Source of the DNA: Escherichia coli
GTDB lineage: Bacteria > Pseudomonadota > Gammaproteobacteria > Enterobacterales > Enterobacteriaceae
DNA: 64,000 bases
Assembly (NCBI RefSeq): GCF_009931435.1
Contig: NZ_CP043414.1
Direction: 5' to 3' (one strand)
The notes below the pieces were generated by a model. The model saw only the letters and a list, made by a program, of their open reading frames with translations. It made no database searches and was not told the origin of the DNA. The position numbers and the translations under genes were made by a program. Numbering within the stretch: the first letter of the stretch is position 1; each line of letters opens with the position of its first letter. Shown here one piece after another: positions 3,327 through 58,323 of this stretch.

Positions 3327-3806
3327 ATGAAACGAATTGCGTTTGTGGGTGTCGTCGGGGCAGGAAAAACAACGTTATTTAATGCGTTGCAGGGGAATTA
3401 TACCCTCGCCAGAAAAACACAGGCCGTGGAATTTAATGATAAGGGCGATATTGATACGCCGGGTGAATATTTTAGCCATCCCCGCTGGTATCACGCCTTA
3501 ATTACCACGCTACAGGATGTGGACATGCTGATTTATGTCCACGGCGCGAATGACCCGGAAAGCCGATTGCCTGCCGGGTTGCTGGATATTGGTGCCAGCA
3601 AACGGCAAATCGCCGTCATCAGTAAAACGGACATGCCGGATGCTGACGTCGCAGCAACGCGAAAGTTATTGCTTGAAACTGGTTTTGAAGAGCCGATTTT
3701 CGAGCTAAACAGCCACGACCCGCAAAGCGTGCAGCAACTGGTGAATTATCTGGCATCTCTCACCGAACAGGAGGAAGCAGGTGAAAAAACTCATCACAGC
3801 GAATGA
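3327..3806 (+). CDS. eutP: ethanolamine utilisation GTPase/acetate kinase-like protein EutP
   Basis: 159 aa; P-loop GVVGAGKTT near N-terminus; eut operon position. Confidence 0.88.
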   Translation: MKRIAFVGVVGAGKTTLFNALQGNYTLARKTQAVEFNDKGDIDTPGEYFSHPRWYHALITTLQDVDMLIYVHGANDPESRLPAGLLDIGASKRQIAVISKTDMPDADVAATRKLLLETGFEEPIFELNSHDPQSVQQLVNYLASLTEQEEAGEKTHHSE

Positions 3807-13314: not shown

Positions 13315-14676
13315 ATGAAACTAAAGACCACATTGTTCGGCAATGTATATCAGTTTAAGGATGTAAAAGAGGTGCTGGCTAAAGCCAACGAACTGCGTTC
13401 GGGGGATGTGCTGGCGGGCGTTGCAGCGGCAAGCTCACAGGAGCGCGTGGCTGCAAAGCAGGTGTTGTCGGAAATGACCGTAGCGGACATCCGCAATAAT
13501 CCGGTGATTGCCTATGAAGATGACTGCGTGACGCGACTGATTCAGGACGACGTTAACGAAACGGCCTACAACCAGATTAAAAACTGGAGCATCAGCGAAC
13601 TGCGTGAGTATGTGCTGAGTGATGAAACCAGCGTTGACGACATTGCTTTTACCCGCAAAGGGCTGACCTCGGAAGTGGTCGCGGCGGTAGCGAAGATTTG
13701 CTCTAACGCGGACCTGATCTACGGCGCGAAGAAAATGCCGGTAATCAAAAAGGCCAATACAACTATTGGTATTCCGGGCACCTTCAGCGCCCGTTTGCAG
13801 CCAAACGATACCCGCGACGACGTGCAAAGTATCGCCGCGCAAATCTACGAAGGGCTTTCTTTCGGGGTGGGCGATGCGGTGATCGGCGTTAACCCGGTGA
13901 CTGACGACGTGGAAAACTTAAGCCGCGTGCTGGATACCATCTATGGCGTGATCGACAAATTCAACATTCCAACCCAGGGCTGCGTGCTGGCGCACGTCAC
14001 CACCCAGATCGAAGCGATTCGTCGCGGTGCGCCGGGCGGGCTGATTTTCCAGAGTATCTGCGGCAGTGAAAAAGGGCTGAAAGAGTTTGGCGTAGAGCTG
14101 GCGATGCTCGATGAAGCACGCGCAGTGGGCGCAGAGTTTAACCGTATCGCCGGGGAAAACTGCCTCTACTTCGAAACCGGGCAGGGTTCTGCGCTATCGG
14201 CGGGCGCTAACTTCGGTGCAGATCAGGTAACGATGGAAGCGCGTAACTACGGGCTGGCACGTCATTACGATCCGTTTATCGTCAACACCGTAGTGGGCTT
14301 TATTGGGCCAGAGTATCTCTACAACGACCGGCAGATTATCCGTGCGGGCTTAGAAGATCACTTTATGGGCAAACTGAGCGGCATTTCTATGGGCTGTGAC
14401 TGCTGCTACACCAACCACGCTAACGCTGACCAGAACCTCAACGAAAACCTGATGATCCTGCTCGCCACCGCAGGCTGCAACTACATCATGGGGATGCCGC
14501 TGGGCGATGACATCATGCTCAACTATCAGACTACGGCCTTCCACGACACCGCCACTGTGCGTCAGTTACTCAACCTGCGCCCGTCACCGGAGTTTGAACG
14601 CTGGCTGGAAAGCATGGGCATTATGGCAAACGGTCGCCTGACCAAACGGGCGGGCGATCCGTCACTGTTCTTCTGA
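13315..14676 (+). CDS. eutB: ethanolamine ammonia-lyase large subunit EutB
   Basis: 453 aa; RBS gaggga upstream; operon position. Confidence 0.92.
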   Translation: MKLKTTLFGNVYQFKDVKEVLAKANELRSGDVLAGVAAASSQERVAAKQVLSEMTVADIRNNPVIAYEDDCVTRLIQDDVNETAYNQIKNWSISELREYVLSDETSVDDIAFTRKGLTSEVVAAVAKICSNADLIYGAKKMPVIKKANTTIGIPGTFSARLQPNDTRDDVQSIAAQIYEGLSFGVGDAVIGVNPVTDDVENLSRVLDTIYGVIDKFNIPTQGCVLAHVTTQIEAIRRGAPGGLIFQSICGSEKGLKEFGVELAMLDEARAVGAEFNRIAGENCLYFETGQGSALSAGANFGADQVTMEARNYGLARHYDPFIVNTVVGFIGPEYLYNDRQIIRAGLEDHFMGKLSGISMGCDCCYTNHANADQNLNENLMILLATAGCNYIMGMPLGDDIMLNYQTTAFHDTATVRQLLNLRPSPEFERWLESMGIMANGRLTKRAGDPSLFF

Positions 14677-17864: not shown

Positions 17865-17940
17865 GGGTGAGGGCCGGATGAGGATGGTGTTTGATCCGGT
17901 CCATAGTGAAGTTACAAATTACGTTGAATTGCTATGTATT

Positions 17941-18258
17941 TTATTGCCCAACGGGATAGGCGATAAACAAACCGACAATTGTCAGAATACACGCCAGCAG
18001 GAATACCAACATACAATTTACGCGCTTTCGCGAAATTTTAAATAAATAGCAAAATAGTGTTGTTACCACGATCACTACCGGGATAGTCATAAAATTAATA
18101 ACGATGAGTGCTATCAATCCAAAACTTGCTCCTCCACCGTGGGGAATAAAAATGTGTTCTTCAAAATAAACTTCTATAGCAAATGCCAGCACACATCCCA
18201 GAAAACTCATATCCAGATGAGGGTGCCATTTACTTTCTTTATTTGATGTGTCTGACAT
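17941..18258 (-). CDS. hypothetical small membrane protein (three predicted TM helices), AT-rich
   Basis: 105 aa ORF with three hydrophobic stretches; gggag RBS ~10 nt upstream of ATG; clearly AT-rich by eye against flanking genes; sits in an interval I do not recognise as conserved core. Confidence 0.5.
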   Translation of the reverse strand: MSDTSNKESKWHPHLDMSFLGCVLAFAIEVYFEEHIFIPHGGGASFGLIALIVINFMTIPVVIVVTTLFCYLFKISRKRVNCMLVFLLACILTIVGLFIAYPVGQ

Positions 18259-18298
18259 TCTTAAATGCTCCCGTGAGCAAACTGGCGCAAAATAATTT

Positions 18299-19561
18299 CT
18301 AAGATTGCTGATAAGACGTCGCTGTTGTCCGGCACTCCGGGCAGATAAACGCGTAAATTATCCCTTCGCCATATTGTTCAATATCGGCATAATCCAGTTG
18401 CGCAAGAAACATCATTGTGTGGGAACATTGCGGACAGAGAGGATATTCCGCGTCCTGAATCCAGGTTGGATGCCCGCCAAGTTGCGAGAAAGAGACAGGT
18501 AAAAATGGGTCTGCGGCAAATAACGGTGACCTAAGGTTTCCCTGTCTCATGCTGTTTACAGGGAGTCGACGCCATTCCGATACATCATCCGGCAGCTAGG
18601 CAGGCGGGATATTTTTTGCAGACAAATGAGCGTTACCCTTTGAGTCCATGTAGCCGAAAATGGTGCTGTAGGCGGTGCAACATTCGCAAGTCACGACGCG
18701 AAAACTGCCGTTATCGCTAAGACCCGTTGCCTTCAGGTCAACGTCGAAAAGATTTGTTAGGGGCAATGCGCACTTTGGACAGGTATCGCTGCGTTCATCA
18801 ACAACACGCAAAGCTTCGCAAGACCCGGTGCTTTTCATCTCCAGATGAAAACATTGAGGAAAATAGAGATTACGCCTTTGATCTTCAGCGGTTAACTCCC
18901 AACCGGCCTCATGCGCATATTCTTCTGGCGCGATGTAAAGTGAACTGCGCCACAGCGGCGGGTTATTGCGCCAGTAGGCAAAACGTTCAACAACAACGTC
19001 ATCCCCAATCCATGCCAGACATTGCAGAATACAATTTCTGTTTTCTGCATCATCCTCAACCCGTTCTAACAGCGTATCGCGAACATCCGCTGGGGCGCGG
19101 TGGAAAGGCAGAGGAGAATAAGCGTCTAAATCATCATAAGAGATCCACTCTCGTAAATATGCATCCAGATTTGCCTGGGTAAACGCCGCCAGACAAAGAC
19201 AAATCTCCTGAGCGTGTTCATATTCACCAGACGCAAAGCGTTCTGTGGCGTAATCAGCCATCAGCTGCGCTTGATCGGCGGTCAACTGTTGATACAGGGC
19301 ATCGGTGGGAGCGGGGCAGGGAGTCCAGTCGATTAACGCATCGAATTTCCGTGGCTGGTGAACTAATTTCAGCATGGCAATCGGATCGCTTAGCCCAGCA
19401 AACACATTCACGGTCTTTTTATTTTTCCTGATATATTCATCGTGCTCACGCTGCTGTTGTGCCTGAACGCAGGGCATACAGTATCCGTCAGTACGCGCAG
19501 CGGTTTCCGGAAGAATGGTTGATGTACAAGCGGGGCTTTTACAGGGAATACGGTGAGTCAT
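18299..19561 (-). pseudogene. DUF1963 (YwqG-like) family gene interrupted by one in-frame TAG at 18596-18598
   Basis: 321 aa ORF (19561..18596) and 83 aa ORF (18550..18299) are in the same frame, separated by TAG plus 15 sense codons; downstream part carries GGHPTWIQDAEYPLCPQCSHTMMFLAQLD...GEGIIYAFICPEC, matching the conserved DUF1963 core; strong RBS aaggag before the ATG at 19561, none before the internal ATG. Confidence 0.6.
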
Positions 19562-19698
19562 AGAGGCGCTCCTTGCCTGAGGATATTAAGTCGAAAGAGA
19601 TTATTATTAGATATTAGGGTGTCACTATGGCACACAAATTAAACAGAATTAATTTCAAGCCACAAACATAGGGTTATTTTTCTTTTATTTTCATGATA

Positions 19699-45984: not shown

Positions 45985-46752
45985 TTAGAACTGATATTTT
46001 ATTGAATAAATAATGCCATCCTGGAGGAAGGCTTCACCCAGTTTATTATCTGCGTAGCGATATTGAATCCCTGCCGTAAAATGCGGTGTCGCATTCCACC
46101 AAAACGCTACTGCTCCGTTTATACCTTCTTTTCCGCCATTACCTGCTGCATATGTAGCGTCGCGGTCAAATTCGTATTCATTCCAGTTAGTCAGGCTGAA
46201 TTTTTCGCTACCAAGCGTGAAACTGTATCCGGCAACCCAGCCCAAAACATAGCCATTGTCACCGGTATAATAGGTTTGATCGGTGTAACGTTTCGCGAAG
46301 AATGGCTTAAACCAGTAACCATTTCCCGTAAAATTGTATCCAAGCCCGTAAAGGAATGTATCATCATAGAAGTTAACACGTTCAGGTGAACCGTAAGTCC
46401 CGTAAGCGTGAAGATAAAGATTCAGTCCTGTATCACCAAGATAAATGCGGTTGGTACTTTTAAAAGTATAACGTTGTTCACTGCCAGATTTTGAATGTCG
46501 GCCATTATAGAAGTTCTCCCAATCGAAGAACCCGTACATTTCTCCCCAACTAAAGTTAGCACCACCTTCTAATTCCAGATAGCCAAAATCATCTTTATGG
46601 GACTTATTACTGGTTTTCTCTGTCGTGCGGGATGTCCAGTCAAGATAATGCAGACCAATGTCAGCAAAGCCCCCTTTAAACTCGGCATAAGACATTTGCG
46701 GAAAAGCCATGGGAACCAGACCAAGGCTTAATGCAAGAAGCTGTTTTTTCAT
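45985..46752 (-). CDS. yfeN: Tsx-family outer membrane nucleoside channel-like protein YfeN
   Basis: ATG at 46752 (MKKQLLALSLGLVPMAFPQMSYA signal peptide), Tyr/Gly-rich beta-barrel sequence ending ...YQF. Confidence 0.85.
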   Translation of the reverse strand: MKKQLLALSLGLVPMAFPQMSYAEFKGGFADIGLHYLDWTSRTTEKTSNKSHKDDFGYLELEGGANFSWGEMYGFFDWENFYNGRHSKSGSEQRYTFKSTNRIYLGDTGLNLYLHAYGTYGSPERVNFYDDTFLYGLGYNFTGNGYWFKPFFAKRYTDQTYYTGDNGYVLGWVAGYSFTLGSEKFSLTNWNEYEFDRDATYAAGNGGKEGINGAVAFWWNATPHFTAGIQYRYADNKLGEAFLQDGIIYSIKYQF

Positions 46753-47005
46753 AGTATGTTCCACTTAAGTAATAAATTTAATGAATGTGATATGCTTACA
46801 TATTTATGCTGTAATTATTTGGCATGTCTATTTTATTAGATTTATGACAGCTCTAACCAATACATAATTATCACGTAATGATAGGGTGTCGATCTGAATG
46901 TCTTCAGGATTGATATCAAATTGCAATTGATATCCGTGGTAAAAAGTATTGGTAAATGTGATGAATTTCCGGTTATTTAAAGGGGGCTCAAAGTCGAAGG
47001 AGAAG

Positions 47006-48262
47006 ATGGTGAATCTAAAACTACAATTAAAAGTACTTTCATTTCTGCAATTCTTTTTGTGGGGAAGTTGGCTCAATACATTCGGTTCCTATATGTTTAT
47101 CACGCTGCGTTTTAAAGGCGAGGATATTGGTGCAGTCTATAGTACCTTGGGTATTGCAGCATTAATAACATCAACGTTATTTGGTATCGTGGCCGATAAA
47201 TGGATTAGTGCTAAATGGATATATGCCGCTTGTCATTTATTTGGCGCGATAACATTATTTGTCGCTGCATCGGTTACCACGCCTTCGGCAATGTTCATTG
47301 TCATTTTACTTAACTCTCTCGTGTATATGCCAACGCTCGGTTTGAGTAATACAATTTCCTATTACCGCATACAAACTGCGGGGATGGATATTGTGACAGA
47401 ATTTCCACCAATCCGTATTTGGGGCACGATTGGATTTATTGTCGCGATGTGGGCGGTGAGTTTGGCAGGTTTTGAATTAAGTCATATGCAATTGTATATC
47501 GGCGCGGCAGCTTCGTTAGGCTTGAGCCTGTTCACGTTGACATTACCGACTGTACCAGTGGCGAAATCTAACCAGGCGCAAGGAATGATAGACGTGCTCG
47601 GACTGCGTGCATTTGCACTGTTTAAGAACAGCAAAATGGCGATTTTCTTTATCTTTGCCATGCTGCTCGGGGCAGAACTACAAATTACCGGGATGTTTGG
47701 TAATACATTTCTCCACAGTTTTGAGAGTGTTCCAGAGTTTGCCAATAGCGTTGTTGTAACTCATGCTTCTATTTTGTTATCAATTTCTCAGATATCCGAA
47801 GTCTGCTTCATTCTTGCCATTCCCTTTTTCCTGAAAAAATACGGTATCAAAAATGTCATGCTGATGAGCATGGTGGCCTGGACGCTGCGTTTTGGTTTAT
47901 TCGCTTATGGCGATCCTTCATTCGGCGGTACCATTCTGTTAATTCTTTCGATGATTGTTTATGGCTGTGCTTTTGACTTCTTCAATATATCTGGCTCGGT
48001 ATTTGTTGAACAAGAAGTTGATCCATCGATTCGTAACAGCGCTCAGGGCGTTTTCCTGATGATGGCCAATGGTTTTGGTTGTATTCTGGGCGGTTTTATC
48101 AGTGGTAAAGTCGTCGATTATTTAACAACGGATGGCAATCCACAGTGGTCAACCATTTGGCTGGTATTTGCCGGATATTCACTGGTTCTGGCTCTCGCAT
48201 TTATGGTGTTGTTTAAATATAAACACAACAGTAACCCGACAACATCCGGTCATTTCGCCTGA
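47006..48262 (+). CDS. nucleoside:H+ symporter (NHS) family MFS transporter, NupG-like paralog additional to xapB
   Basis: 418 aa from ATG at 47006 with RBS aaggag at 46997-47002; MVNLKLQLKVLSFLQFFLWGSW... and conserved MIVYGCAFDFFNISGSVFVEQEV block shared with NupG/XapB; AT-rich by eye. Confidence 0.8.
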   Translation: MVNLKLQLKVLSFLQFFLWGSWLNTFGSYMFITLRFKGEDIGAVYSTLGIAALITSTLFGIVADKWISAKWIYAACHLFGAITLFVAASVTTPSAMFIVILLNSLVYMPTLGLSNTISYYRIQTAGMDIVTEFPPIRIWGTIGFIVAMWAVSLAGFELSHMQLYIGAAASLGLSLFTLTLPTVPVAKSNQAQGMIDVLGLRAFALFKNSKMAIFFIFAMLLGAELQITGMFGNTFLHSFESVPEFANSVVVTHASILLSISQISEVCFILAIPFFLKKYGIKNVMLMSMVAWTLRFGLFAYGDPSFGGTILLILSMIVYGCAFDFFNISGSVFVEQEVDPSIRNSAQGVFLMMANGFGCILGGFISGKVVDYLTTDGNPQWSTIWLVFAGYSLVLALAFMVLFKYKHNSNPTTSGHFA

Positions 48263-48316
48263 TACGGAATTTATCAAAATTAATAATGTTTTATAGGATT
48301 AGCAAAGGAGGATATT

Positions 48317-49246
48317 ATGGCAAATCAATTGTATAACCAGTGTCGGGTTTATTGTGCACCCTGGCGATTAGATGCTTTGAATTTAAATGATATCATTGAT
48401 CAATGGATTGACGAGGGGCTGTTGCCGCCCCTGATCCATACTTTTCTTCCATATCGTGATGATGCCGGTGCCTCCAGTGAAGAAGAGATTTTTGTTAATG
48501 ATGTCGCGAATATGGACAATAGTGTTGGGGTTATCGGTTATTTCGATGGTGGAACCTATGATTCCGGTTGTGCATGGGAAGTAGGCTATGCATGGGCTTT
48601 AGGGATGCCTGTTCACTTGGTAACGACAGACTTTCTTATATGGGCAGCGGGGAATTCTTCAGAGTTTTACCCTATAAGTAAGCTGATGAATTATGTGGCA
48701 AAAGTGGTTTCGGTGTCAGATTCCGATGCTAGCATCAGCAACTATCGTGAACAAACCAACGATATCATCAAGCGTGCGTTGCAAATTCTTCAACAAAATT
48801 TAATCGCCGACTTCGGCACGACGATTACTCCCGCTGTACCGATTACGCCATTTCCGATTGAGTATGACTATTATCTTGATCCTAACTTTATGTATACCGA
48901 ACCCTCTCGGGGCTTACTGGAGAAAATCAAAGATGCGATCATTAGTGCAGGTAAGACTTTCATCGTTGGCGACAATATGAATGATATTGCGACTGATATT
49001 GATAACTTAAGAAAATCCAGACAGGCCATCTTTTATTCCGATACCTTTGAGCCGAATGTCGACACCGGTATTATGAATGGTATTGCCTATGCATTAGGAC
49101 AGCAATCGATAGTTTATTGTAGCAAGCAACAAAAGTATCAATCTGCGCTCGCGACAGATTATTTGAATTTAATGATTACCTGGTCGTCAACGGTGGCGCA
49201 TTCATTTGCGGAGCTTGAAACATTGATTGGTAACACAGAAAAATAA
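48317..49246 (+). CDS. hypothetical protein with two tandem nucleoside 2-deoxyribosyltransferase (NDT/Rcl)-like domains
   Basis: 309 aa; domain 1 has GYFDGGTYDSGCAWEVGYAWALGMPV (NDT/Rcl-like ExGYAxALGxP core with the Glu), domain 2 has DTGIMNGIAYALGQQ (same core, Asn in place of Glu); RBS aaggagg upstream; AT-rich by eye. Confidence 0.6.
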   Translation: MANQLYNQCRVYCAPWRLDALNLNDIIDQWIDEGLLPPLIHTFLPYRDDAGASSEEEIFVNDVANMDNSVGVIGYFDGGTYDSGCAWEVGYAWALGMPVHLVTTDFLIWAAGNSSEFYPISKLMNYVAKVVSVSDSDASISNYREQTNDIIKRALQILQQNLIADFGTTITPAVPITPFPIEYDYYLDPNFMYTEPSRGLLEKIKDAIISAGKTFIVGDNMNDIATDIDNLRKSRQAIFYSDTFEPNVDTGIMNGIAYALGQQSIVYCSKQQKYQSALATDYLNLMITWSSTVAHSFAELETLIGNTEK

Positions 49247-55954: not shown

Positions 55955-56124
55955 TCTCTGCCTTTTGCCGCTTTTGTAATACAGTCTACATCCTGGCAGT
56001 GCCGTGTGGTGAATGCATCACTGACTGAAAAAACAGCAACAGGCTGGCCCCTGTTTGCTTCGCGATGCGAATAAACTTATTATTTGTGTGCCTGAAAACC
56101 CCGATCAGTGAGAGTAGTGTACTC

Positions 56125-58323
56125 ATGTTTGTGGAGCATAACCTGATAAAAAATATCAAGATATTCACACTAGCGTTTACGCTCACCGTGGTACTTATTC
56201 AGCTATCCCGTTTTATTTCGCCACTTGCCATTATCCATTCCAGTTATATCTTTCTGGCGTGGATGCCACTGTGCGTAATGCTGTCAATCTTGTTTATCTT
56301 TGGCTGGCGCGGTGTCGTTCCCGTTTTATGCGGGATGTTTTGCACCAATCTGTGGAACTTTCATCTCTCTTTTTTACAGACCGCGGTCATGCTCGGCAGC
56401 CAGACGTTTGTGGTGTTGTGTGCCTGCGCAATATTACGCTGGCAGCTGGGGACGCGTTGGCGTTATGGATTGACCAGCCGATACGTCTGGCAACGTCTGT
56501 TCTGGCTTGGTTTGGTGGCGCCGATTGGCATCAAATGCAGCATGTATCTTGTGGGAAATTTCTTTGATTTTCCGCTAAAGATATCTACCTTTTTCGGCGA
56601 TGCGGATGCCATTTTCACGGTCGTTGATTTGCTAAGCCTTTTCACCGCAGTGCTGATTTACAACATGCTTTTTTACTATCTCACCCGCATGATTGTAAGT
56701 CCCCACTTTGCACAGATATTGTGGCGTAGGGATATCGCTCCGTCGTTGAGCAAAGAGAAACGCGCATTTACCTTAAGCTGGCTGGCAGCTCTTAGCGTGC
56801 TGCTACTTCTGATGTGCACACCGTATGAAAATGACTTTATTGCCGGTTACCTGGTACCTGTTTTCTTTATCATCTTTACCCTCGGGGTCGGTAAGCTTCG
56901 CTATCCGTTTTTAAATCTCACCTGGGCTGTTTCAACGCTTTGCCTTCTGAATTACAACCAGAACTTTTTGCAAGGGGTACTAACCGAATATTCGCTGGCA
57001 TTTATTCTCGCGGTGCTGATTTCCTTTAGTGTTTGCCTGCTCTATATGGTGCGCATTTATCATCGTAGTGAATGGCTTAACCGACGCTGGCATTTGCAGG
57101 CGCTGACCGATCCGTTAACGCTCTTACCCAACTTTCGCGCGTTGGAACAAGCACCAGAGCAAGAGGCTGGCAAGAGTTTTTGCTGCCTGCGTATTGATAA
57201 CCTTGAGTTTATGAGTCGTCATTACGGGTTAATGATGCGCGTTCACTGTATCCGCTCAATTTACCGTACGTTAATGCCGCTGATGCAGGAAAACGAAAAG
57301 TTGTATCAATTGCCGGGGAGTGAACTGCTGTTAGTGCTGAGCGGGCCGGAAACGGAAGGGCGACTCCAGCATATGGTTAACATCCTGAATAGTCGGCAAA
57401 TTCACTGGAACAATACCGGGCTGGATATGGGCTATGGTGCTGCCTGGGGGCATTTCGATGGAAATCAGGAAACCCTGCAACCAATGCTCGGGCAGTTAAG
57501 CTGGCTGGCGGAACAATCCTGCGCACATCATCATGTGCTGGCGCTGGATAGCAGAGAGGAGATGGTTTCCGGGCAAACCACTAAACAGGTGCTATTGCTG
57601 AATACCATTCGCACGGCGTTAGATCAGGGTGATTTGCTGCTCTACGCCCAGCCAATTCGCAACAAAGAGGGTGAAGGTTATGATGAGATCCTCGCGCGAC
57701 TGAAGTATGACGGCGGCATTATGACCCCGGATAAGTTTCTGCCCCTTATTGCTCAGTTTAACCTTAGCGCGCGTTTTGATTTGCAAGTGCTGGAATCCTT
57801 GTTGAAGTGGCTGGCAACACACCCTTGCGACAAAAAAGGTCCGCGCTTTTCAGTCAATTTAATGCCGCTCACGCTGCTGCAAAAAAATATCGCCGGGCGG
57901 ATTATTCGTCTGTTTAAGCGTTATCACATCTCCCCGCAGGCGGTCATTCTTGAGATCACCGAGGAACAGGCGTTTTCTAACGCAGAAAGCAGTATGTACA
58001 ACATCGAGCAGCTGCATAAGTTTGGTTTCCGGATTGCGATTGATGATTTTGGCACCGGCTATGCCAACTACGAACGGCTAAAGCGTTTGCAGGCTGATAT
58101 CATCAAAATTGATGGCGTCTTTGTGAAAGATATCGTCACGAACACGCTGGATGCGATGATTGTGAGATCAATTACCGATCTGGCGAAAGCGAAGTCATTG
58201 AGTGTGGTCGCGGAGTTTGTCGAAACGCCACAGCAGCAGGCGCTATTGCATAAGCTCGGGGTGCAATATCTGCAAGGGTATTTGATTGGTCGCCCTCAGC
58301 CATTAACTGATGAACAGGCGTAA
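56125..58323 (+). CDS. yfeA: membrane-anchored GGDEF-like/EAL domain protein (putative c-di-GMP phosphodiesterase)
   Basis: ATG at 56125 (MFVEHNLIKNIKIF...); multi-TM N-terminal region; C-terminal EAL-type domain (...IAIDDFGTGYANYERLKRLQADIIKIDG...). Confidence 0.85.
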   Translation: MFVEHNLIKNIKIFTLAFTLTVVLIQLSRFISPLAIIHSSYIFLAWMPLCVMLSILFIFGWRGVVPVLCGMFCTNLWNFHLSFLQTAVMLGSQTFVVLCACAILRWQLGTRWRYGLTSRYVWQRLFWLGLVAPIGIKCSMYLVGNFFDFPLKISTFFGDADAIFTVVDLLSLFTAVLIYNMLFYYLTRMIVSPHFAQILWRRDIAPSLSKEKRAFTLSWLAALSVLLLLMCTPYENDFIAGYLVPVFFIIFTLGVGKLRYPFLNLTWAVSTLCLLNYNQNFLQGVLTEYSLAFILAVLISFSVCLLYMVRIYHRSEWLNRRWHLQALTDPLTLLPNFRALEQAPEQEAGKSFCCLRIDNLEFMSRHYGLMMRVHCIRSIYRTLMPLMQENEKLYQLPGSELLLVLSGPETEGRLQHMVNILNSRQIHWNNTGLDMGYGAAWGHFDGNQETLQPMLGQLSWLAEQSCAHHHVLALDSREEMVSGQTTKQVLLLNTIRTALDQGDLLLYAQPIRNKEGEGYDEILARLKYDGGIMTPDKFLPLIAQFNLSARFDLQVLESLLKWLATHPCDKKGPRFSVNLMPLTLLQKNIAGRIIRLFKRYHISPQAVILEITEEQAFSNAESSMYNIEQLHKFGFRIAIDDFGTGYANYERLKRLQADIIKIDGVFVKDIVTNTLDAMIVRSITDLAKAKSLSVVAEFVETPQQQALLHKLGVQYLQGYLIGRPQPLTDEQA

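Follow-up and report, generated by a model that had tools for sequence, protein, structure and literature searches.

The TYPP superfamily unites TSR4, YwqG, PDCD2L and PDCD2 and includes the YwqG/DUF1963 proteins; its hallmarks are two homologous strand-swapped beta repeats, a GGxP motif, a conserved glutamine and optional CxxC pairs, and for the domain a role as a chaperone-like module for protein interaction has been proposed (PMC4275035). In "prokaryotic family 2" of this superfamily, an uncharacterized alpha-helical domain is found at the N-terminus, and several members carry an added C4 zinc finger of the DksA/TraR type (PMC4275035). Eukaryotic PDCD2 and Tsr4 are reported to be dedicated chaperones of the ribosomal protein uS5 (PMC7736825); for the bacterial versions, Burroughs and Aravind (2014) reported no evidence of a role in ribosome biogenesis (PMC4275035). 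The stretch of Escherichia coli DNA analysed here (64 kb, referred to as the window) carries on its minus strand a gene of this superfamily (18299..19561; 420 codons and a terminal TAG) which is interrupted at codon 322 by an amber codon.

Judged from an AlphaFold model based on a 47-sequence family alignment (pLDDT 93.8, pTM 0.88), the intact product of this gene would begin with a C4 zinc ribbon, followed by a helical domain of HEAT-like type and by a TYPP/YwqG beta domain built of two repeats. Such an architecture fits the description of prokaryotic family 2: a C4 motif (C7, C12, C28 and C31) is followed by an all-helical domain and then by TYPP, and the fusion of an N-terminal alpha-helical domain to TYPP that marks this family is present. 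The four cysteines are invariant in the 47-sequence alignment and fit a C4 zinc ribbon; Pfam reports no DksA/TraR match for this protein. Compared with YwqG of Bacillus subtilis (PDB 1PV5), to which it is ~11% identical in sequence, the present protein has ~220 extra N-terminal residues (the zinc ribbon and the HEAT-like solenoid) that YwqG lacks, and sequence searches of the PDB and Foldseek with the present protein returned no matches. In the predicted structure, the two homologous all-beta repeats form one domain with the 1PV5 fold, and at the sequence level the first repeat can be aligned with the second (residues 260-305 with 375-420, E 3.4e-4). The initial annotation had called the protein "DUF1963-like", which is loosely right: the Pfam DUF1963 (PF09234) match is rated faint or weak in precomputed annotations and restricted to 48 residues (359-406; i-Evalue 5.8e-5, 24 bits, model positions 1-51 of 216), whereas fold comparison with the model assigns the entire C-terminal 200 residues to the YwqG/TYPP fold. 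The protein shares with PDCD2/Tsr4 its superfamily and the proposed chaperone-like or protein-protein-interaction role; the present gene adjoins hemF and the small membrane-protein gene ypfK, and is not placed among ribosomal genes.

In the list of open reading frames, the minus strand contains a 321-aa ORF (19561..18596) that stops with TAG (CTA at 18596-18598 on the plus strand) and, further downstream, an 83-codon ORF (18299..18550) with an ATG start. When 19561..18299 is translated in one frame, the 321 codons are followed by one stop, by LPDDVSEWRRLPVNS and by the 83-codon ORF (M...QQS*), and the joined reading comprises 420 codons and a terminal stop with a single internal stop. This translation bears out the earlier proposal that an in-frame amber codon splits one gene, that the 15 codons between the TAG and the internal ATG are all sense codons, and that the intact length is about 420 aa, which is also the length annotated for the intact E. 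coli copies that were inspected. The premature TAG (codon 322, 18596..18598, minus strand) divides the gene into a 5' part (codons 1-321, 18599..19561), the sole product expected under normal termination, and a 3' part (codons 323-420 and the stop, 18299..18595) that contains the 83-codon ORF. The true start, the ATG at 19561, is preceded by the Shine-Dalgarno sequence AAGGAG (19569..19574, minus strand) at a distance of 7 nt; the bases before the internal ATG at 18550 (CTCCCTGTAAACAGC) contain no Shine-Dalgarno-like purine run, as the initial annotation had remarked. The two ORFs are not juxtaposed by chance, because the joined reading matches intact proteins and genes: it is identical at 409 of 420 residues to the annotated intact E. 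coli protein WP_000149701 and at 1262 of 1263 nt to the copies of the gene in GCA_036246705.1 and CP057959.1.

A database search retrieved about 145 homologues (E ≤ 0.001), hosted by Escherichia, including E. albertii, and by Citrobacter, Kluyvera, Salmonella, Klebsiella-like bacteria, Chitinimonas and Paenibacillus. The 120 homologues listed are single proteins, almost all of 394-452 aa, and nearly all cover 100% of the query; none of these 120 ends near residue 321 with a separate downstream gene, the arrangement (with a ribosome-binding site for the downstream gene) that had been named beforehand as incompatible with a single interrupted gene. Four shorter Escherichia entries were inspected: three lack the N-terminus or diverge C-terminally, yet read through the W322 position, and the fourth (P0030) has a small deletion directly before it. 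Among 5,426 complete E. coli genomes, DNA matching the gene is present in 28 and the gene is missing from ~99.5%. The match is annotated as "DUF1963 domain-containing protein" in all 28 carriers, and in each of the seven that were inspected a 420-aa CDS runs without interruption, placed either between eutR and hemF or at the corresponding site. At the position of the window's TAG, every allele compared has TGG (Trp322), both in a DNA alignment of three intact alleles and in a codon comparison of six. On the strength of these alignments the ancestral codon 322 is TGG, one of the candidates (CAG, TGG or TAC) put forward by the initial annotation. In the wider family this position is usually a tyrosine (consensus PxYLPxD in the 47-sequence alignment), and position 322 is therefore an aromatic residue in a linker. 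The intact orthologues share the eutR-ypfK-gene-hemF locus, and a single base change turns the sense codon into the stop. The dN/dS ratios of intact alleles range from 0.2 to 0.44; the gene is therefore under purifying selection where it is present. Besides codon 322, ten differences separate the window protein from WP_000149701, all within residues 1-110 and none past the stop. In a separate comparison with strain MFDS1022581, 19 codons differ among codons 1-110 (19232-19561; dS 0.16) and none among codons 111-420 apart from the stop, a distribution which suggests that the allele is a mosaic with a recombination breakpoint inside the gene.

The initial annotation had also placed the most conserved block downstream of the TAG, and the alignment agrees. 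Of its 31 invariant columns, 12 lie within the last 62 residues (S359, G362, G363, P365, W367, Y373, P374, C376, M383, Q388, G400 and C407), and the Pfam DUF1963 match falls in the same region. The GGxP motif (SQLGGHP in this protein) is invariant at G362, G363 and P365 in the 47 sequences and lies downstream of the amber codon in the window; the CxxC pairs are likewise invariant, and of the conserved glutamines Q388 shows no variation, whereas Q369 is kept in more than 90% of the sequences. To the 5' part belong the C4 zinc ribbon, the HEAT-like helical domain (residues ~60-220) and TYPP repeat 1, whose CxxC pair is C261/C264 and C292/C295. TYPP repeat 2 lies in the 3' part and carries the invariant SQxGGxP, Q388 and a CxxC pair of its own (C376/C379 and C407/C410). 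Codon 322 is located in the modelled loop between the two repeats, and the 321-residue product retains TYPP repeat 1 and is devoid of repeat 2 and of all superfamily signature residues. Normal termination by RF1 would yield a 321-residue fragment that comprises the zinc ribbon and the HEAT-like domain and breaks off halfway through TYPP; with the second repeat, the invariant GGxP, the conserved glutamine and a zinc-binding CxxC pair would be lost. Because a single strand-swapped beta domain is made up of both repeats jointly, this fragment is expected to be non-functional, and structure and conservation indicate that the amber allele is most likely null, a nascent pseudogene.

Two near-clonal relatives were retrieved through the exact EutR protein of the window: GCA_036246705.1 and the 5.2-Mb chromosome CP057959.1 (GCA_013900085.1). 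Both have TGG and an intact 420-aa gene. Over 9,053 bases, GCA_036246705.1 differs from the window at three positions and CP057959.1 at two, including position 18597 in both cases. The window segment 37,009-58,262 is 100.000% identical to 1560883-1582136 of CP057959.1 over 21,254 bases, and in total this chromosome shows 2 differences in 30,307 compared bases (the stop and position 14422); according to these alignments, the source strain of the window is almost clonal with GCA_013900085.1. The intact form of the window's own allele is found on 21 public contigs. An exact look-up in a collection of 15 billion proteins found neither the 321-aa nor the 83-aa product, an exact scan with a TAG-spanning 34-mer gave 0 matches in the GTDB representative genomes and 0 in JGI metagenome contigs, and in a megablast search of the 5,426 complete E. 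coli genomes an 81-mer containing the amber codon was matched at no more than 80 of its 81 positions. The amber allele is therefore private. Each of the 49 other reference genes that were tested in the first 50 kb of the window is full-length and free of gaps, frameshifts and stops, and the lesion is isolated, single-base and young.

Some additional features of this genomic background can be mentioned. In the RefSeq collection of complete E. coli genomes, which does not include CP057959.1, the best matches to the window reach only 98-99.4% (R32_14_1F from goat; 2020CK-00188). The substitution at 14422 results in EutB D370N relative to GCA_036246705.1, CP057959.1 and two further relatives, and is outside any Dcm motif; another substitution, at 3352, results in EutP A9V inside the GxxGxGKT P-loop relative to three near-identical relatives (loci L021-L023). 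These two changes and the amber are all G:C-to-A:T and all protein-altering, three cases being too few for statistics. The idea of a mutagenised or mutator lineage was considered and dropped, since CP057959.1 is 100% identical to the window over the further 21,254 bases and two or three SNPs carry no statistical weight.

The sequence context of the mutated base recalls a classical situation. The inner C of Dcm sites is a textbook hot spot for real C-to-T mutation by deamination of 5-methylcytosine; Coulondre et al. reportedly located amber hot spots of lacI at such sites in 1978, and the work of Lieb in 1991 is said to be linked to these deamination hot spots and to Vsr very-short-patch repair. 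In the window, the plus strand reads CTAGG at 18596..18600 in place of the CCAGG of the near-clonal relatives (CAGCTAGGC in the window, CAGCCAGGC in the relatives), and the changed base (18597; T on the plus strand, A on the coding strand, C in the near-clonal relatives) is the inner, methylated C of this Dcm site. The event would thus be a G-to-A change on the coding strand (C-to-T at plus-strand base 18597), converting Trp322 from TGG to TAG. As at the lacI-type hot spots, a C-to-T change at the inner C of CCAGG yields an amber codon; unlike there, the amber arises from TGG via the opposite strand and not from CAG, and the deamination is deduced from the context. Given the position of the changed base within the Dcm motif, deamination of 5-methylcytosine to thymine at CCAGG is the most likely origin, and the resulting mismatch would have escaped Vsr very-short-patch repair, which corrects the T:G mismatches arising from deamination of C5meCWGG (CTWGG/CCWGG context; PMC2715241). 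Only three codons of the gene (Q129, W322 and W367) can be converted to amber through deamination at a Dcm site. The tetramer CTAG is strongly depleted in the window, with 10 occurrences in 64 kb, of which two are CTAGG and none CCTAG, compared with 153 sites of the CCWGG type. One of the two CTAGG pentamers was generated by the amber mutation.

We consider it probable that the TAG is a real and very recent nonsense mutation (Trp322 TGG to amber) in an otherwise intact accessory Escherichia gene. An error of sequencing or consensus building, with the isolate truly carrying TGG and the T at 18597 arising from miscalling of a Dcm-methylated cytosine or from polishing, is unlikely. In its favour, the change is private to the window sequence and sits exactly on the methylated C of CCAGG, and with default basecallers ~70% of nanopore consensus errors have been found in Dcm motifs (PMC6591954). 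A systematic miscalling of Dcm sites is nevertheless contradicted by the comparison with CP057959.1, in which 64 of the 65 CCWGG sites within the 30.3 kb shared are unchanged and the only one altered is the amber site. The absence of frameshifts and stops from the 49 other genes checked indicates a consensus of high quality, the window has at least one other private substitution (14422) that is unrelated to Dcm motifs, and a real C-to-T change is precisely what this textbook hot spot would be expected to produce.

It is highly improbable that the gene remains functional despite the TAG, be it by amber suppression, by leaky termination, or because the 321-aa and 83-aa pieces reassemble or act independently. 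The stop does lie in the linker between the TYPP repeats, where a split could in principle be tolerated, and it is followed by C; owing to fourth-base effects, TAG-C terminates translation comparatively weakly in E. coli, and trace read-through is possible. The perfect preservation of the sequence downstream of the TAG could also be read in favour of continued function, but a very young mutation would equally leave this sequence perfect. The TAG, moreover, is absent from every relative, including the near-clonal ones and all 28 carrier genomes, and no naturally split homologue was found. The internal ATG lacks a Shine-Dalgarno sequence and its methionine is not conserved (LNSIQLG in homologue P0028). 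No suppressor tRNA occurs among the six tRNA genes of the 64-kb window, all of which have wild-type anticodons, and TAG ends other window genes in the normal way. Less probable still is the split-protein variant in which the 321-residue fragment would be stable and would keep or change its activity, alone or complemented non-covalently by an 83-residue C-terminal piece from low-level reinitiation. A gene that depends on programmed read-through or suppression, or one that is naturally split, is not supported by the sequences compared. Of the three options left by the initial annotation, the recent nonsense mutation is favoured and the base-call error is retained behind it; the suppression-dependent gene is not supported, the stop being absent from every relative examined.

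The real nonsense mutation favoured here affects a gene with a close downstream neighbour, and its consequences may extend to the latter. The window has the gene order maeB, eut operon, eutR, two accessory genes, hemF, amiA ... cysPUWAM, ptsHI-crr, ligA, gltX and mntH. In the ORF list, the other accessory gene (17941..18258, minus strand) is 40 nt downstream of the disrupted gene and encodes a 105-aa membrane protein homologous to YpfK (PF26378). A Pfam scan of this neighbour matched no family; its identity is based on an identical protein already labelled PF26378 and on 50% identity to the YpfK encoded beside the Klebsiella-like homologue. A terminator scan between the two genes revealed no terminator-like site. 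The disrupted gene and the ypfK-like gene are probably co-transcribed; the ypfK-like gene would therefore be exposed to polarity from the premature stop.

In Klebsiella-like bacteria, and with the order swapped in Salmonella, hemF is likewise linked to the TYPP gene and ypfK. In view of this conservation across genera, the TYPP/ypfK pair looks like an ancestral enterobacterial feature that most E. coli have lost, rather than a recent island. The order is hemF, ypfK, TYPP gene in Salmonella Paratyphi A and hemF, TYPP gene, ypfK in the Klebsiella-like genome and in Escherichia (loci compared: L009 137-1872 and L010 6001-7694); in the Klebsiella-like genome, the pair is found between hemF and maeB, without the eut operon. 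The eutR-hemF interval (window 17865-19698) is a variable spot, as seen at the compared loci L008 6646-10253, L007 2958-3750 and L003 4461-7346. For instance, strain WL297 also has two TPR proteins, a T6SS immunity gene of the Tli3 family and another hypothetical gene at this spot, a TacA/GNAT toxin-antitoxin pair is inserted in E7-1N7, and in E2348/69 the TYPP gene is adjoined by an SNF2-related gene and not by hemF. A role in defence or immunity, as might be suggested by the neighbourhood, was discarded: the Paenibacillus and Chitinimonas homologues have no conserved neighbours, and only the enterobacterial hemF/ypfK linkage is kept.

Two other regions of the window attracted our attention. 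An accessory cluster upstream of xapA (45985-49246) encodes a Tsx/OmpK-like channel, a second nucleoside permease, 61% identical to the product of the adjacent xapB-like gene, and a nucleoside 2-deoxyribosyltransferase; the 8 kb around this cluster are at least 80% covered in only 4,031 of the 5,426 genomes. The 752-aa ORF at 56065-58323 (plus strand) corresponds to a MASE1-EAL protein for which relatives have calls of 729 or 732 aa. No 752-aa version of this protein is on record, and the true start is therefore probably downstream of the first in-frame start codon.

The disrupted TYPP gene, which belongs to a known but uncharacterized family, is best regarded as an ordinary nonsense allele private to this strain, with a base-call error as the less probable reading. 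For annotation, the two ORFs are to be merged into one disrupted gene, with an internal stop and an ancestral Trp322, and not listed as two hypothetical proteins. The locus is a natural illustration of amber mutation within a Dcm motif, and Dcm motifs merit checking at the level of the reads before pseudogenes are called. If the mutation is real, the isolate is a natural knockout of this gene on a background nearly identical to that of the intact strain CP057959.1.
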